Source: a bacterium (GTDB lineage Bacteria; Patescibacteriota; Microgenomatia; Daviesbacterales; UBA10151). Taken from it: DNA of 64,000 bases. Under the pieces are notes generated by a model, which worked only from the letters and a program-made list of their open reading frames with translations, did not search any database and was not told the DNA's origin. The stretch lies in contig JAJYNN010000002.1 in the NCBI GenBank assembly GCA_021786315.1, positions 204,402 through 268,401 on the forward strand, written 5' to 3'. Below, in pieces: positions 21,071 through 57,294 of the stretch (positions within the stretch are counted from its first letter, which is position 1; each line of letters opens with the position of its first letter). Both the position numbers and the translations under genes were made by a program.

Positions 21071-21622
21071 ATGAATATTAACCCAATGACCCAAAAAACA
21101 TTAGTAATCCTAAAGCCGGACGCGATGCAGCGCGGTTTGGCCGGGGAAATTATCTCCCGCCTGGAAAGGGTGGGTTTGAAGCTCATTCATGCGGAGTTGG
21201 TTAACGCCAGCAAGGAACTGGCCTCCGAGCATTACCCGACAACCCCGGAATGGCTGGAAAAAGTCGGCAACAATACCATCTCTGATTGTGAGAAATACGG
21301 TGTGGATGTTAAAGAGGCCATGGGGACAGATGTGCCTTCAGAGATCGGGGAGTTGGTCCACAAGTGGAATATGGAATATATCTCCTCCGGGCCGGTTTTG
21401 GCGATGGTTTGGGAAGGTATTCATGCTGTGGAAGTAGTTAGGAAGCTTTGCGGCCCGACCCTGCCGCTTTTGGCTCCTGCAGGGACTATCAGAGGGGATT
21501 TCTCATCCAATTCGGCAATCTCGGAGAATGTCGAGCATAAACCTATCAGGAACTTGATTCATGCTTCCGGAACTCCCGATGAAGCAGCCCGCGAAATTGA
21601 ACTCTGGTTTGGCAAAAAATAA
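21071..21622 (+). CDS. ndk: Nucleoside diphosphate kinase with an insertion of about 35-45 aa.
   Basis: LVILKPDA...NLIHASGT...EIELWF. The extra segment lies between HY and SSGPVLAMVWEG. Confidence 0.85.
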   Translation: MNINPMTQKTLVILKPDAMQRGLAGEIISRLERVGLKLIHAELVNASKELASEHYPTTPEWLEKVGNNTISDCEKYGVDVKEAMGTDVPSEIGELVHKWNMEYISSGPVLAMVWEGIHAVEVVRKLCGPTLPLLAPAGTIRGDFSSNSAISENVEHKPIRNLIHASGTPDEAAREIELWFGKK

Positions 21623-21639
21623 CTTCTAATAATGGTCGG

Positions 21640-21700
21640 GGACGAGGGAATAAGGCTACCTTTTGACTTCGTCAAAACGATCTTGATCCCTCTTTAACTG
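21640..21700 (-). other. Duplicated tRNA-Pro 3' fragment (T-arm remnant plus acceptor 3' strand plus CCA) enclosing a hairpin TTTTGACGAAGTCAAAA.
   Basis: The minus strand reads GAGGGA[tcaagatcgttttgacgaagtcaaaaggtagcc]TTATTCCCTCGTCCCCGACCA. The string tcggggacgagggaat is found at both 21646 and 21707. Confidence 0.6.
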
Positions 21701-21707
21701 TGTTCTA

Positions 21708-21780
21708 GTCGGGGACGAGGGAATTGAACCCTCTACTTCTCGAACCCGAATCGAGCGTTCTACCGATGAACTAGTCCCCG
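21708..21780 (-). tRNA. tRNA-Pro (anticodon CGG).
   Basis: Cloverleaf folded by hand: 7-bp acceptor CGGGGAC/GTCCCCG, anticodon loop TTCGGGT, T-loop TTCAATT; CCA not encoded. Confidence 0.75.
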
Positions 21781-21789
21781 AAATTTATG

Positions 21790-21862
21790 TACCCCTGGAG
21801 GGAGTTGCACCCCCGGCCTTTCCCTTAGGACGGGACCGCTCTATCTACTGAGCTACAGGGGC
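21790..21862 (-). tRNA. tRNA-Arg (anticodon CCT); slightly atypical T-loop TGCAACT and a G27-A43 mismatch.
   Basis: GCCCCTG-TA-GCTC-AGTAGATA-GAGC ... loop GTCCTAA ... GGGGGTGCAACTCCCTC-CAGGGGT-A. Confidence 0.55.
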
Positions 21863-47468: not shown

Positions 47469-47554
47469 AAACGTGAGCCGAAGACGGGAATAACACTACT
47501 TTTCGCTGCGCTCAAAGATGTTGTTCTCGTTTCTGGCTCACTCGAAGACTCGTG

Positions 47555-47626
47555 AGCCGACAACGGGAATCGAACCCGTGACCCCGTTCTTACCAAGAAC
47601 GTGCTCTGCCACTGAGCCATGTCGGC
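47555..47626 (-). tRNA. tRNA-Thr (anticodon GGT).
   Basis: GCCGACA-TG-GCTC-AGTGGCA-GAGC ... loop TTGGTAA ... CACGGGTTCGATTCCCGT-TGTCGGC-T. Confidence 0.75.
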
Positions 47627-56917: not shown

Positions 56918-57045
56918 GCTGGGTAAGTCGCCGCATAGGGCTACTTGGCTTCGCCAAGATCCTGTGTGGCATCTTTCTTGAGTTGACTGAGACGCCACAT
57001 AAGTCTACTTTGACTTCGTCAAAGATCTTGTGTGGAGGTTTCTCT
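56918..57045. repeat. Two tandem hairpin-containing repeats of about 45 nt (cttggcttcgccaagatcctgtgtgg / ctttgacttcgtcaaagatcttgtgtgg), related to the hairpin at 21663.
   Basis: Direct visual comparison; shared core ttgacttcgtcaaa..gatcttg. Confidence 0.55.
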
Positions 57046-57294
57046 GAGTTGTTTTAACCTCCACATGAACACTTTGGCCTTGGATTTGGCTGAGGTATAG
57101 CCTTTGGCATATGTTAGGGCCTGGTCCAAAAGGCCCCGGCTATATTGTTTAGCCAGCTTGATATAGAGGGAATAATGTTTGGTGTCACCTAATTCTTCCG
57201 CTAAATAAACTCCGTAAACCTGGAACTCCTGGGATAAATTCTTGGGGCGGTCAGGGTGTTTTTGCTGGTCGATGATCTGGCCTATACTCTTCAT
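57019..57294 (-). CDS. Hypothetical small protein (91 aa).
   Basis: ORF only. Confidence 0.3.
   Translation of the reverse strand: MKSIGQIIDQQKHPDRPKNLSQEFQVYGVYLAEELGDTKHYSLYIKLAKQYSRGLLDQALTYAKGYTSAKSKAKVFMWRLKQLRETSTQDL

Follow-up and report, generated by a model that had tools for sequence, protein, structure and literature searches.

Insertion at a tRNA gene that duplicates the gene's 3' end is classically the mark of mobile DNA, normally of large integrase-bearing elements; for a tRNA-targeting integrase, the textbook signature is a direct repeat that spans T loop to 3' end, with the native CCA on the displaced copy. Integrase-less, cis-mobilizable derivatives of such elements are known as CIMEs. 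Casposons (8-20 kb, with terminal inverted repeats, encoding Cas1 and a polymerase) also target tRNA gene 3' ends (tRNA-Pro in the case of one archaeal casposon) and leave a 14-15-bp duplication. Elements of the IS200/IS605 type duplicate no target; they insert on the 3' side of a fixed tetra- or pentanucleotide and have a subterminal hairpin at each end. Partial tRNA 3' ends can also be repeated in tandem, as in the tyrT repeats of E. coli. Attachment sites can also be folded single strands, such as the attP hairpin of the CTX phage, and C-GAA-G hairpins are unusually stable in single-stranded DNA. The attC site of integrons is a folded single-strand attachment site forming an imperfect hairpin (PMC5027507), and phage T4 SegB is encoded by a free-standing GIY-YIG homing endonuclease gene in a tRNA cluster (PMC2330249).

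The locus described here lies in a window of 64,000 nt, which is the whole stretch of DNA that was analysed. The features discussed below, with positions counted from the first letter of the window, are as follows.

21071-21622, plus strand: ndk (nucleoside diphosphate kinase), convergent with the tRNAs (Pfam NDK; homologues)
21635-21651, minus strand: X2, second copy of tRNA positions 58-74, with CA at 21633-21634 (sequence match)
21652-21686, minus strand: conserved hairpin module, TCA/AGATCG - TTTTGAC GAA GTCAAAA - GGTAGCCTT (covariance model R1; alignment A2; pair counts)
21687-21692, minus strand: X', GAGGGA, outer stem or pseudo T stem (predicted fold)
21693-21707, minus strand: 15-nt spacer TAGAACACAGTTAAA between tRNA and hairpin unit (sequence; insert comparison)
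21708-21724, minus strand: X1, upstream copy of the direct repeat, tRNA positions 58-74, ATTCCCTCGTCCCCGAC (exact 17-mer match)
21708-21780, minus strand: tRNA-Pro(CGG), intact, start 21708 or 21709 by caller (ARAGORN; Rfam tRNA, 61.4 bits)
21789-21862, minus strand: tRNA-Arg(CCT), first gene of a two-tRNA unit, ARAGORN/Rfam start 21789/21790 (ARAGORN; Rfam tRNA, 54.6 bits)
47475-47553, minus strand: second cassette, after tRNA-Thr(GGT) (sequence comparison; R1)
56935-56966, minus strand: orphan hairpin module, unit A (R1, 47.3 bits; sequence)
56999-57032, minus strand: orphan hairpin module, unit B (R1, 51.7 bits; ORF list)

The tRNA-Arg gene lies 8 nt upstream of tRNA-Pro, whose acceptor 3' strand, A73 and C74 end at 21708. 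As TAG directly follows C74, the gene encodes no CCA, in agreement with what had been read from the letters alone. The 17-mer is identical in X1 and X2 (17/17), and X2 with its CA reads ...GACCA, 10 nt from the ndk stop codon. Allowing up to three mismatches, we found two matches of the 17-mer in the window, against a mean of 0.12 in shuffled sequences (0/100 reached two). Two independent assemblies made from further sequencing runs (L001 and L002 in our numbering of loci) have the arrangement base for base, so that an assembly artefact is rejected and the duplication reported by the sequence-only reading is real. Its sizes need revision: that reading gave about 20 nt for the duplication and 60 nt for the hairpin element, both of which exist, and the exact repeat is 17 nt (19 with CA) and the spacer between X1 and X2 is 56 nt (21652-21707; left end TAGAACAC..., right end ...GGTAGCCTT). 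A search for the spacer elsewhere, which the same reading had proposed, returned a single occurrence of the 56 nt in the window; the hairpin module is the part that recurs. The total insert behind tRNA-Pro is 73 nt (75 with the CA after X2), contains no gene, and runs in the order 15-nt spacer, X' arm, 35-nt hairpin module, X2, CA; its removal in silico would give an empty allele tRNA...GAC joined to CATTATTAG. No conserved counterpart of the 15-nt spacer was found in the inserts of other loci. ARAGORN and Rfam called no second tRNA in 21633-21707, so the locus holds one gene plus a fragment as had been expected, and a second tRNA, or a tRNA with a T-loop intron, is rejected by this lack of a call and by the missing 5' half. 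The insert is present in every contig sampled from this species, with no presence/absence polymorphism seen among them. The neighbours (ComEC, ArgRS, phosphoesterase, Ndk, sortase, PEGA, glycosyltransferase and MreB) stand in an order conserved with relatives.

Covariance model R1 matched the hairpin at 21650-21687 with 46.3 bits (E = 1e-10). Its inner part, TTTTGAC-GAA-GTCAAAA at 21661-21677, has a 7-bp stem and a GAA loop, and the module occupies the site where T-loop positions 57/58 would be, a junction that is the same in all compared copies. X' is complementary to TCCCTC at the start of X2, and in other loci the corresponding arm agrees with the repeat found there. The downstream piece resembles a T arm with the module interrupting its loop at 57/58, followed by the acceptor 3' strand; in the predicted fold of the tRNA-Pro copy only 6 bp of the T stem form and the acceptor strand stays single-stranded. 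Taken alone, the fold of the hairpin region is not significant against shuffled sequences (z = -0.9 on the plus and -1.8 on the minus strand), and it is comparison with the other copies, not energy, that argues for a real hairpin. In that comparison the stems covary, with 88.9% of cells paired and four pairs changing on both sides, which was equalled by 4/500 shuffles; the outer ATCA(A/G)G...CTTAT is conserved, and the inner stem varies with compensatory changes. Since the 5' half of the pseudo T loop is ATCA in every copy, even with a resident T loop of TCCA, the part left of 57/58 looks cassette-derived rather than copied from the tRNA. In L063 and L087, X' is ACAGG as against GCAGG in the resident strand, and is the complement of X2.

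Three further copies of the module were found in the window. Behind tRNA-Thr(GGT), a 62-nt insert (47492-47553) is followed by a 17-nt copy of tRNA positions 58-74 with 2 mismatches (47475-47491), and tRNA-Thr(TGT) begins 6 nt beyond the cassette. The module there, at 47490-47525, scored 39.2 bits with R1, and the cassette folds with z = -3.1 as RNA on the tRNA-sense (minus) strand and -3.3 as DNA on the opposite (plus) strand. The other two are units A and B, which bear out the related hairpins that had been noticed near 56918-57045; the outer stem of unit A is unrelated to any tRNA found in the window. The core of the tRNA-Pro copy resembles the tRNA-Pro core of L011 and an orphan in L059, and the core of the tRNA-Thr copy resembles that behind tRNA-Arg(TCT) in L017.

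We then compared 340 tRNAs in 137 related CPR sequences (∼860 kb; loci of 1-14 kb), searching for copies of the last 14 nt of each tRNA with up to 2 mismatches, outside other tRNAs and within 400 nt. The copies showed a strict polarity: 20 were downstream direct, none upstream direct, none downstream inverted, and 2 upstream inverted. The first 14 nt of the tRNA gave the mirror image, with 13 copies upstream and none downstream. The repeats nearly always begin at tRNA position 58 and finish at about 74, with a variable extent of 14-20 nt or longer, and nearly all of them bound inserts of 36-351 nt, of which at least 17 are independent, each shorter than 360 nt. Only two repeat copies, in L089 and L105, lay more than 400 nt from the tRNA when all loci were searched to their ends. 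Left ends of the inserts are unrelated between loci, and X2 is exact in many loci despite differing spacers. In the 200 nt downstream of tRNAs, GAA-loop hairpins are enriched on the tRNA-sense strand, with 12 as against 4 antisense and 34 elsewhere in 859 kb.

Orthologous loci show both presence and absence of inserts, so the arrangement is not uniformly shared among relatives, whose comparison the sequence-only reading had called for. Four ndk-tRNA-Pro loci are empty, with ndk directly beside tRNA-Pro (L015, L016, L226 and L225), and in the first three the ndk 3' end abuts or overlaps the tRNA-Pro 3' end; L005, L014 and L227 have other inserts, again with a repeat of this kind as their boundary. 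These empty sites uphold the earlier proposal that the duplicated tRNA 3' end marks an insertion at a tRNA gene. GGATCAGGGAGNGAAGCGAGCT is common to L013 and L227 despite different tRNA alleles, with X' and X2 fitting the local tRNA in each case. About 18 of 131 tRNA-Pro genes have a tRNA-Pro-like 3' fragment downstream (one fragment is upstream), and 9/18 of these fragments differ from the resident tRNA at 4-11/17 positions. For example, ATTCCCAGCACCCCGAC, present in both L107 and L045, is the true tRNA-Pro 3' end of L036, L046, L053 and L067. Fragments can thus come from another allele, which requires recombination with other DNA and not local slippage.

From these comparisons, the insert behind tRNA-Pro is a member of a recurrent family of miniature cassettes at tRNA gene ends in Daviesbacteria and neighbouring CPR, as judged by sequence. 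We favour, with a probability of roughly 0.55, the reading that it is a miniature, gene-less insertion product of recombination between the tRNA T loop and the 3' end. Incoming DNA would carry its own tRNA-like arm, the arm would recombine with the same sequence in the tRNA gene between T loop and 3' end, and the product would be an intact tRNA, the inserted DNA, the X'-module-X hairpin and the native flank. Such recombination predicts the order tRNA, insert, X'-module-X, flank, exactly as observed. We infer the recombination origin, as well as which repeat copy came in and any present or recent mobility, from this arrangement and the comparisons above. The sequence-only reading had offered two possibilities: a large element that integrated and then shrank to about 60 nt, which finds poor support given the lack of an integrase or a viral match and the uniformly small inserts, and a small hairpin element with tRNA target specificity, which fits better than a reduced prophage because the same core stands behind different tRNAs in different organisms. 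The X'-module-X hairpin itself may tentatively be regarded as a putative attachment site.

Several observations count against this favoured reading. Neither a recombinase, transposase or nuclease gene near the site nor a GIY-YIG gene in the window was found, and no circular or free form or viral copy turned up. The strict module is rare, left ends of the inserts are unrelated between loci, the species shows no polymorphism for the insert among its sampled contigs, and the fold energy of the tRNA-Pro hairpin is not significant when taken alone. The same core with arms matching a new tRNA counts against it too, as the acquisition of such arms is left unexplained. The reading implies no benefit to the cell.

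A history in two steps is the alternative that survives best, and we consider it unlikely. A truncated copy of the tRNA 3' part would have arisen behind the gene, by the process, whatever it is, that so often yields such fragments in this lineage, and a small mobile module with a preference for hairpin loops would then have inserted into the T loop of this dispensable pseudo-arm; later, the arms would have become more complementary by templated correction within the hairpin. The evidence for the recombination reading also fits such a history. Plain 5'-truncated pseudo-tRNA-Pro copies without the module lie downstream of the tRNA in L027, L036, L069, L105 and L128, the copies in L011 and L013 reach leftwards into the tRNA variable loop or anticodon stem, and orphan modules sit in unrelated hairpins (56935-57032 in the window, and L059). 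The constant junction at 57/58 would follow as well. Against two steps stand the invariant ATCA, whatever the resident T loop, and the X' of L063 and L087, which complements X2 and is not a copy of the resident T-stem strand; moreover, no module insertion into a hairpin loop was found with an empty counterpart.

A more speculative version of the recombination reading would have the cassette fold as single-stranded DNA, with a stem that reproduces the tRNA 3' end, and recombine with the tRNA gene in the manner of attC or the CTX phage; we regard this as quite doubtful. The order X - insert - X' - loop - X, the breakpoints at tRNA loops and the strand-specific C-GAA-G hairpins would all be accounted for. 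The likeness lies in an imperfect hairpin whose flanks are conserved and whose centre varies, a stem that reproduces the double-stranded target, and arms that are adjacent at one insert end beside the target repeat (X - insert - X' - loop - X). In contrast, the RYYYAAC / GTTRRRY core sites of attC are absent at the hairpin ends in 21633-21707, a tRNA gene takes the place of attI or dif as the target, and the inserts are gene-less. Single-strand recombination of the cassettes is proposed from their anatomy, and should be read as conditional. Under this doubtful version the cassette would be gene-less here and carry a small GIY-YIG gene in some relatives, and could, with equally slender odds, represent a hitherto undescribed class of CPR hairpin cassettes that target tRNA genes. 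In a full-text search of the literature, we found no description of such cassettes.

The GIY-YIG link is suggestive only. To our knowledge, T4 SegB is not known to leave tRNA-end duplications. Like SegB, small GIY-YIG genes occur inside tRNA clusters of related CPR contigs, where those in L089, L133, L129 and L065 are bounded by duplicated tRNA ends, some with GAA-loop hairpins beside them. The encoded proteins are ∼70-130 aa long in stop-to-stop frames, and that of L089 (105 aa), the one scanned against Pfam, matches the catalytic domain only. Unlike SegB, these proteins are putative homing endonucleases, and the window has no GIY-YIG gene (profile from 16 related CPR ORFs, E up to 1). The 15 tBLASTn matches (16 ORFs in the later profile) come from tRNA-centred loci and are a biased sample, and no more than 5 C-GAA-G hairpins occur at 200 nt or less from these GIY-YIG ORFs.

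It is improbable that the locus is the scar of a phage, plasmid or island that entered the T-loop-to-3'-end segment of tRNA-Pro by a tyrosine integrase and was then deleted down to ∼56 nt. The cassettes do resemble attL/attR scars and CIMEs in the T-loop-to-3'-end direct repeat, in the intact gene on one side and the displaced fragment with native CCA and flank on the other, and in the empty sites of relatives. However, our ORF scan found no integrase, recombinase, transposase, nuclease or foreign gene within ∼5 kb of the site, gene order is conserved, and the cassettes have no cargo and no phage or plasmid counterpart. The 17-mer and the hairpin core had no true match in 2.9 million viral contigs (IMG/VR): two exact-pattern scans gave 0 matches and a looser pattern gave 88, none with the inner hairpin, and a phage or plasmid attP is rejected accordingly. 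No circular or free form of the cassette was found. With whole inserts of 36-351 nt in every cassette seen and only two repeat copies beyond 400 nt in the 137 sequences, a scar would require the same near-total deletion to have happened many times over. Random leftovers are not expected to have covarying stems and a conserved core, nor is a fragment paired in a hairpin with its own inverted copy a feature of such scars; 5' fragments upstream are about as common as 3' fragments (13 versus ∼18). The fragments in L107 and L045 are incompatible with the resident 5' half and are not displaced original ends.

Other classes of mobile element compare as follows. Casposons share the tRNA 3'-end target, and their 14-15-bp duplication is close to the 17 nt seen here, but the cassette lacks terminal inverted repeats, Cas1 and a polymerase, and its family has heterologous fragments as opposed to a simple target duplication. 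No terminal inverted repeats join 21652-21665 with 21695-21707, and this, together with the unrelated left ends of the inserts, speaks against a MITE; the fixed short local target duplication of a MITE is not seen either, as the repeat is variable and mismatches the local tRNA in 9/18 tRNA-Pro cases. An IS200/IS605-type element or its miniature derivative disagrees with the presence of a 17-nt repeat and of one hairpin module only.

Similarly improbable is a functional RNA in the tRNA 3' trailer, that is, a hairpin with a T-stem/acceptor mimic ending in CCA that acts in the precursor and could serve as a minihelix handle for trimming by RNase P, RNase Z or the CCA-adding enzyme, or as a decoy. 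The copies are always downstream on the tRNA strand, and some lie between two tRNAs of one operon (the tRNA-Thr pair of the window, and L013) and for that reason must be transcribed. In L063, L087 and the tRNA-Thr copy the stem continues into the acceptor strand as a minihelix-like stack, and the exactness of X2 beside differing spacers would suit such a role. On the other hand, the fragments are patchy (∼18/131 tRNA-Pro genes, with close relatives lacking them), the tRNA-Pro copy with its 6 bp and unpaired acceptor strand is not a minihelix, orphan modules lie away from tRNAs, and heterologous fragments are hard to square with a hairpin that imitates the resident tRNA. The C·A mismatch conserved next to the module and the four A·C mismatches of the tRNA-Thr copy become G·U only on the opposite strand, and fold energies of the two strands are mixed across loci.

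A known RNA family is rejected, as Rfam (4227 covariance models, gathering threshold) matched only tRNAs in the window, and at a relaxed E-value the tRNA trailers of six related loci had no match. A rho-independent terminator of ndk or of the tRNA operon is likewise rejected: the terminator scan returned nothing at 21633-21707 on either strand, and X2 has no T run behind it on the tRNA strand.

A local duplication without foreign DNA, through replication slippage or unequal crossing-over at the tRNA gene, is very improbable here, for all that X1 equals X2 and their spacing of 73 nt is about one tRNA length, since the spacer in register with the tRNA has chance identity, and as a general cause it is largely refuted by the common cores behind different tRNAs in different organisms and by heterologous fragments, half of the tRNA-Pro-like fragments mismatching the resident gene. 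A degraded in-register tandem tRNA copy is rejected on the same alignment (14/56 matches of the 56-nt spacer, ungapped, by eye). Snap-back (fold-back) copying as the origin of X' is rejected by the TCAAG that follows X' where TTGAAC would be expected, and reverse transcription of mature tRNA as a general source of X2 by the CA that comes next in only 3 of ∼12 copies.

In these CPR lineages a signature of mobile DNA thus recurs with tiny gene-less inserts, a conserved hairpin and an arm complementary to the duplicated end, and the family also includes mirror-image events at the 5' ends of tRNA genes as well as fragments that derive from foreign tRNA alleles. If the cassettes are mobile, they would represent unrecognised movement or exchange of DNA at tRNA genes in very small genomes of the CPR type, which have few known mobile elements, and would offer a natural example of target recognition by a hairpin built as a copy of the target. 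Were they only scars, they would still record frequent recombination and allele replacement at the tRNA genes of the group. In annotation, island finders based on tRNA-end repeats can mistake such fragments for prophage boundaries.

The strict module is rare: the window has 4 copies, and ∼770 kb of related loci added only 3 distinct ones. A general abundance of GAA/TTC triloop hairpins is rejected, with only 8 in the window, 3 of which are the modules themselves. REP and other small palindromic elements differ in having GTAG before the palindrome, whereas in the cassettes it follows the inner hairpin; the low copy number (4 in 64 kb) is unlike REP as well, and a duplicated tRNA end is not a REP feature. 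The cassettes nevertheless share with REP the character of short intergenic hairpin repeats with a conserved GTAG by the stem, and several of the window copies lie in one orientation. Unit B overlaps the 3' end of a 91-aa ORF at 57019-57294.

The site lies where ndk converges with two tRNA genes:

21071-21622, plus strand, ndk (Pfam NDK), convergent with both tRNAs
21708-21780, minus strand, tRNA-Pro(CGG) (ARAGORN; Rfam 61.4 bits)
21789-21862, minus strand, tRNA-Arg(CCT) (ARAGORN; Rfam 54.6 bits), separated from tRNA-Pro(CGG) by 8 nt

Read on the tRNA strand, the tRNA-Pro gene ends in ...GAGGG-TTCAATT-CCCTC-GTCCCCG-A-C followed by TAG, with CCA not encoded. A 56-nt spacer, TAGAACACAGTTAAA GAGGGA TCAAGATCG TTTTGAC-GAA-GTCAAAA GGTAGCCTT, leads to a second copy of ATTCCCTCGTCCCCGAC and then CA, from which it is 10 nt to the ndk stop codon. 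The repeated 17-mer corresponds to tRNA positions 58-74 and is exact in the window only at 21708-21724 and 21635-21651; no further match was found there at ≤3 mismatches, and two matches occurred in 0 of 100 shuffles. The spacer occurs once in the window, and the whole arrangement is base-for-base identical in two contigs (L001 and L002), independent assemblies of other sequencing runs. The observation of the sequence-only reading, a copy of the tRNA-Pro 3′ end with a hairpin, is thus borne out in all material points by the exact repeat, the spacer and the two independent contigs. In the best-supported reading (probability about 0.55), 21633-21707 is a miniature, gene-less insertion product at the tRNA-Pro 3′ end, one of a family of inserts which in this lineage would target tRNA genes in their loop-to-end segments. 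Ndk homologues place the window in Candidatus Daviesbacteria (CPR, Microgenomates).

In the downstream piece, GAGGGA of the spacer pairs with the TCCCTC opening the second copy to form an outer stem. This encloses AAG/CTT, then an internal loop of unequal sides (ATCG / GGTAGC), then a 7-bp stem with a GAA loop. The piece thus resembles a T arm (GAGGG - xTCA / ... / ATT - CCCTC) with ~31 nt set into its loop between positions 57 and 58; the acceptor 3′ strand and CCA come after it. It is not itself a tRNA because the 5′ half is absent (ARAGORN, Rfam).

Comparison loci came from species-representative genomes, where Ndk homologues and the anticodon arm of tRNA-Pro(CGG) served as anchors. The order ComEC - ArgRS - phosphoesterase - Ndk - [tRNA-Pro, tRNA-Arg] - sortase - PEGA is kept in relatives, and both empty and filled states were found. 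At empty sites (L015, L016, L225, L226), the ndk 3′ end abuts or overlaps that of tRNA-Pro, while at filled sites the 3′ end of the local tRNA is repeated at the border of every insert:

L005/L006, two extra copies of ATCCCCGAC and hairpins
L011, 56-nt insert with the module type of the window
L012, 136-nt insert
L013, 41-nt insert between tRNA-Pro and tRNA-Arg
L014, 116-nt insert
L227, 48-nt insert

L011, L012 and L013 are listed as filled tRNA-Pro sites, not as ndk-matched ones; the repeat is followed by sequence other than ndk in the first two and by tRNA-Arg in L013. ATTCCCTGGTCCCCGAC is common to L011, L012 and the empty L016, and the inserts differ despite close tRNA alleles, so that turnover of the site is fast compared with tRNA evolution. 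The insert-free L016 (1295-1320) and L226 (1590-1612) show a convergent overlap of unusual tightness, in which the ndk frame enters the antisense of the tRNA-Pro 3′ end or terminates within it.

Another 120 CPR-like loci were obtained by scanning metagenomes for the tRNA-Pro D-arm, giving a survey set of 137 sequences with 340 tRNAs (ARAGORN). The last 14 nt of each tRNA were searched at ≤2 mismatches over 400 nt on either side, other tRNAs excluded, which gave 20 direct matches downstream and none upstream, and 2 inverted matches upstream and none downstream. The non-redundant cases comprise tRNA-Pro (CGG, TGG, GGG), tRNA-Arg (CCT, TCT, TCG), tRNA-Gly (TCC) and tRNA-Thr (GGT); the repeat nearly always starts at position 58 and ends at ~74, inserts measure 36-351 nt, and only two repeat copies lie >400 nt from the tRNA. 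Fragments of the 5′ end mirror this: they measure 15-36 nt, start at +1 and reach into the D or anticodon loop, and all 13 non-redundant cases are upstream of an intact gene, with 0 downstream. Short fragments of this kind form a hairpin with an inverted self-copy (L061, L085, L132). The pattern thus extends across the lineage with strict polarity, and on these extents the breakpoints lie in cloverleaf loops and at mature tRNA ends.

Several single loci deserve mention. The tRNA's first 18-21 nt are repeated 45-66 nt upstream in L061:1-141, L085:5340-5462, L132:1422-1550 and L100:2100-2238, and in the first three a short loop comes next, then part of the repeat in inverted form; for L100, the repeat alone was noted. 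Downstream of tRNA-Pro CGG, GGG and TGG, respectively, L014:3588-3703 (minus strand), L028:311-432 and L082:2301-2416 carry a conserved element of 116-122 nt with several hairpins and an internal T-arm-like motif, which ends at the local tRNA 3′-end repeat and has no Rfam match. In L132:1270-1421 (minus strand), a near-complete second copy of tRNA-Pro(TGG), its D loop broken by a ~62-nt insert, directly follows the intact one. In L125:8325-8520, tRNA-Arg(TCT) is separated from a diverged 34-nt copy of its own 3′ part by three ~38-nt tandem repeats, each with GAA-loop hairpins.

Further copies of the hairpin module were found in the window, one of them behind tRNA-Thr(GGT):

47554-47626, minus strand, tRNA-Thr(GGT), followed by a 62-nt insert and ATTCCCGTCTTCGGCTC
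47475-47553, minus strand, second tRNA-end cassette, between tRNA-Thr(GGT) and tRNA-Thr(TGT)
56935-56966 and 56999-57032, minus strand, tandem orphan module copies upstream of def

ATTCCCGTCTTCGGCTC at 47475-47491 is a 17-nt copy of tRNA-Thr(GGT) positions 58-74 with 2 mismatches, and tRNA-Thr(TGT) starts six nt beyond it. The Thr cassette forms a long hairpin whose inverted arm spans the entire repeat, and its core, AACATCTTTGAGCGCAGCGAAAAGTAGTGTT, is nearly the same as that beside a tRNA-Arg(TCT) repeat in L017, an unrelated metagenome contig. A covariance model built from an alignment of six module copies matched the window exactly four times, always on the minus strand (21650-21687, 47490-47525, 56935-56966, 56999-57032); the last two are the related hairpin repeats which the sequence-only reading had placed at 56918-57045, and their outer stems are unrelated to any window tRNA. 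In ~770 kb of other loci, the model matched L011, L017 and an orphan beside tRNA-Pro(TGG) in L059 (L136 is the same). Across copies, the internal loop keeps its flanks, ATC on one side and GTAG on the other, the latter 4 nt ahead of the repeat, and both stems vary with compensation: 88.9% of cells are paired, and the four pairs changed on both sides were reached in 4 of 500 shuffles, every slid control being far lower. The left ends of inserts are unrelated to one another. A 91-aa ORF without a Pfam hit (57019-57294) shares its final codons and stop with the orphan at 56999-57032, and module insertion may have remodelled the end of this ORF.

With X for positions 58-74 and X′ for an inverted arm complementary to it, the parts are arranged as tRNA(X) - short DNA - X′ - module - X - native flank. 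Such an order would result if a tRNA gene recombined with an element whose attachment site was the hairpin X′-module-X, a topology shared by integron attC sites and the hairpin of phage CTX; by this analogy, the hairpin itself could be the attachment site, which we regard as a tentative proposal. L013 and L227 share the core GGATCAGGGAGNGAAGCGAGCT, with repeat and inverted arm matching a different tRNA allele in each. In L063 and L087, the inverted arm ACAGG is the exact complement of the repeat while the resident strand has GCAGG, and ATCA stands left of 57/58 in every copy of the window-module type, even beside a resident T loop TCCA; both observations rule out a plain copy of the resident T arm. 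In many tRNA-Pro genes of this lineage (L004, L013, L017, L063, L087, L107, L132), the T loop is TCCAATT, which places C at position 55; U (pseudouridine 55) is almost universal there.

The main rival, though improbable, is a two-step history in which a pseudo-tRNA fragment came first and a loop-seeking hairpin module was then inserted.

Local duplication alone does not account for the repeat. A generic tRNA-Pro end (A[AT]T[CT]C-N7-CCGAC), searched within 300 nt around tRNA-Pro genes, gave 18 non-redundant cases downstream vs 1 upstream; 9 of these 18 fragments disagree with their resident tRNA at 4-11 of 17 positions. Several of these heterologous fragments are longer, 5′-truncated pseudo-tRNAs starting in the anticodon or D loop. 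ATTCCCAGCACCCCGAC is carried by both L107 and L045, whose resident tRNAs differ, and is the genuine tRNA-Pro(CGG) 3′ end in four other contigs. Such fragments must derive from another allele, carried by the insert or left by gene replacement.

A degraded integrase-borne element is less probable still: no recombinase occurs among the ORFs within ~5 kb of the site, all of which are housekeeping genes, and no phage or plasmid counterpart was found.

Related contigs carry possible agents, small GIY-YIG genes inside tRNA clusters (Pfam PF01541, E = 6e-18 for the L089 ORF); the following are enclosed by tRNA 3′- or 5′-end duplications measuring 14-36 nt:

L089:2127-2565, GIY-YIG gene, duplicated 3′ end, 14 nt
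L133:10604-10986, GIY-YIG gene, duplicated 5′ end, 23-24 nt
L129:5457-5858, GIY-YIG gene, duplicated end, 19-22 nt
L065:4575-4960, GIY-YIG gene, duplicated end, 36 nt

L085 has a decayed GIY-YIG gene, and in L128 a module related to the solo modules of L050 and L107 lies between tRNA-Val and such a gene. The window has none, and in a sample biased towards tRNA loci the link of GIY-YIG genes to the tRNA-end cassettes is a lead. C-GAA-G hairpins show an enrichment ≤200 nt downstream of tRNAs on the tRNA-sense strand, with 12 there as compared with 4 antisense, 5 upstream and 34 elsewhere in 859 kb. In single-stranded DNA, such loops have exceptional stability.

A functional trailer RNA is as improbable as a degraded integrase-borne element. 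The Thr cassette must be transcribed because it lies inside a tRNA operon, and its fold reaches significance, with z = -3.1 for RNA of the minus (tRNA-sense) strand and -3.3 for DNA of the plus (opposite) strand. The fold of the tRNA-Pro copy alone is not significant (z = -0.9 and -1.8), and the downstream piece matches no Rfam family and shows no terminator likeness on either strand. Fold energies of the two strands are mixed across loci. GAA loops point to the tRNA-sense strand as the folding strand, whereas the C·A mismatch that is conserved among copies, like the four A·C mismatches in the Thr cassette, would form wobble pairs only on the strand opposite the tRNA. Slippage, for all the exactness of the window repeat, is very improbable: simple local duplication is ruled out for the heterologous fragments, which are mismatched to the resident tRNA and, being unable to pair with its 5′ half, are not displaced original ends of the present gene either.

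A full-text literature search found no description of such tRNA-end hairpin cassettes. Insertion at a tRNA gene with end duplication is a classic category. What departs from it is that the inserts are miniature, that their hairpin has an arm complementary to the target, that mirror events occur at 5′ ends, and that some fragments stem from foreign alleles. At the ndk locus, L225:1951-2750 and L226:1612-2470 have a 191-aa ORF downstream of ndk (in L226, between ndk and sortase) that weakly matches 23S_rRNA_IVP. Short repeats of the GTAACTTAAGTGACTTAGG type run along both sides of this ORF; in L227:3053-3100, they are seen alone immediately after ndk. This suggests that the ORF and its flanking repeats are a further small mobile cassette.
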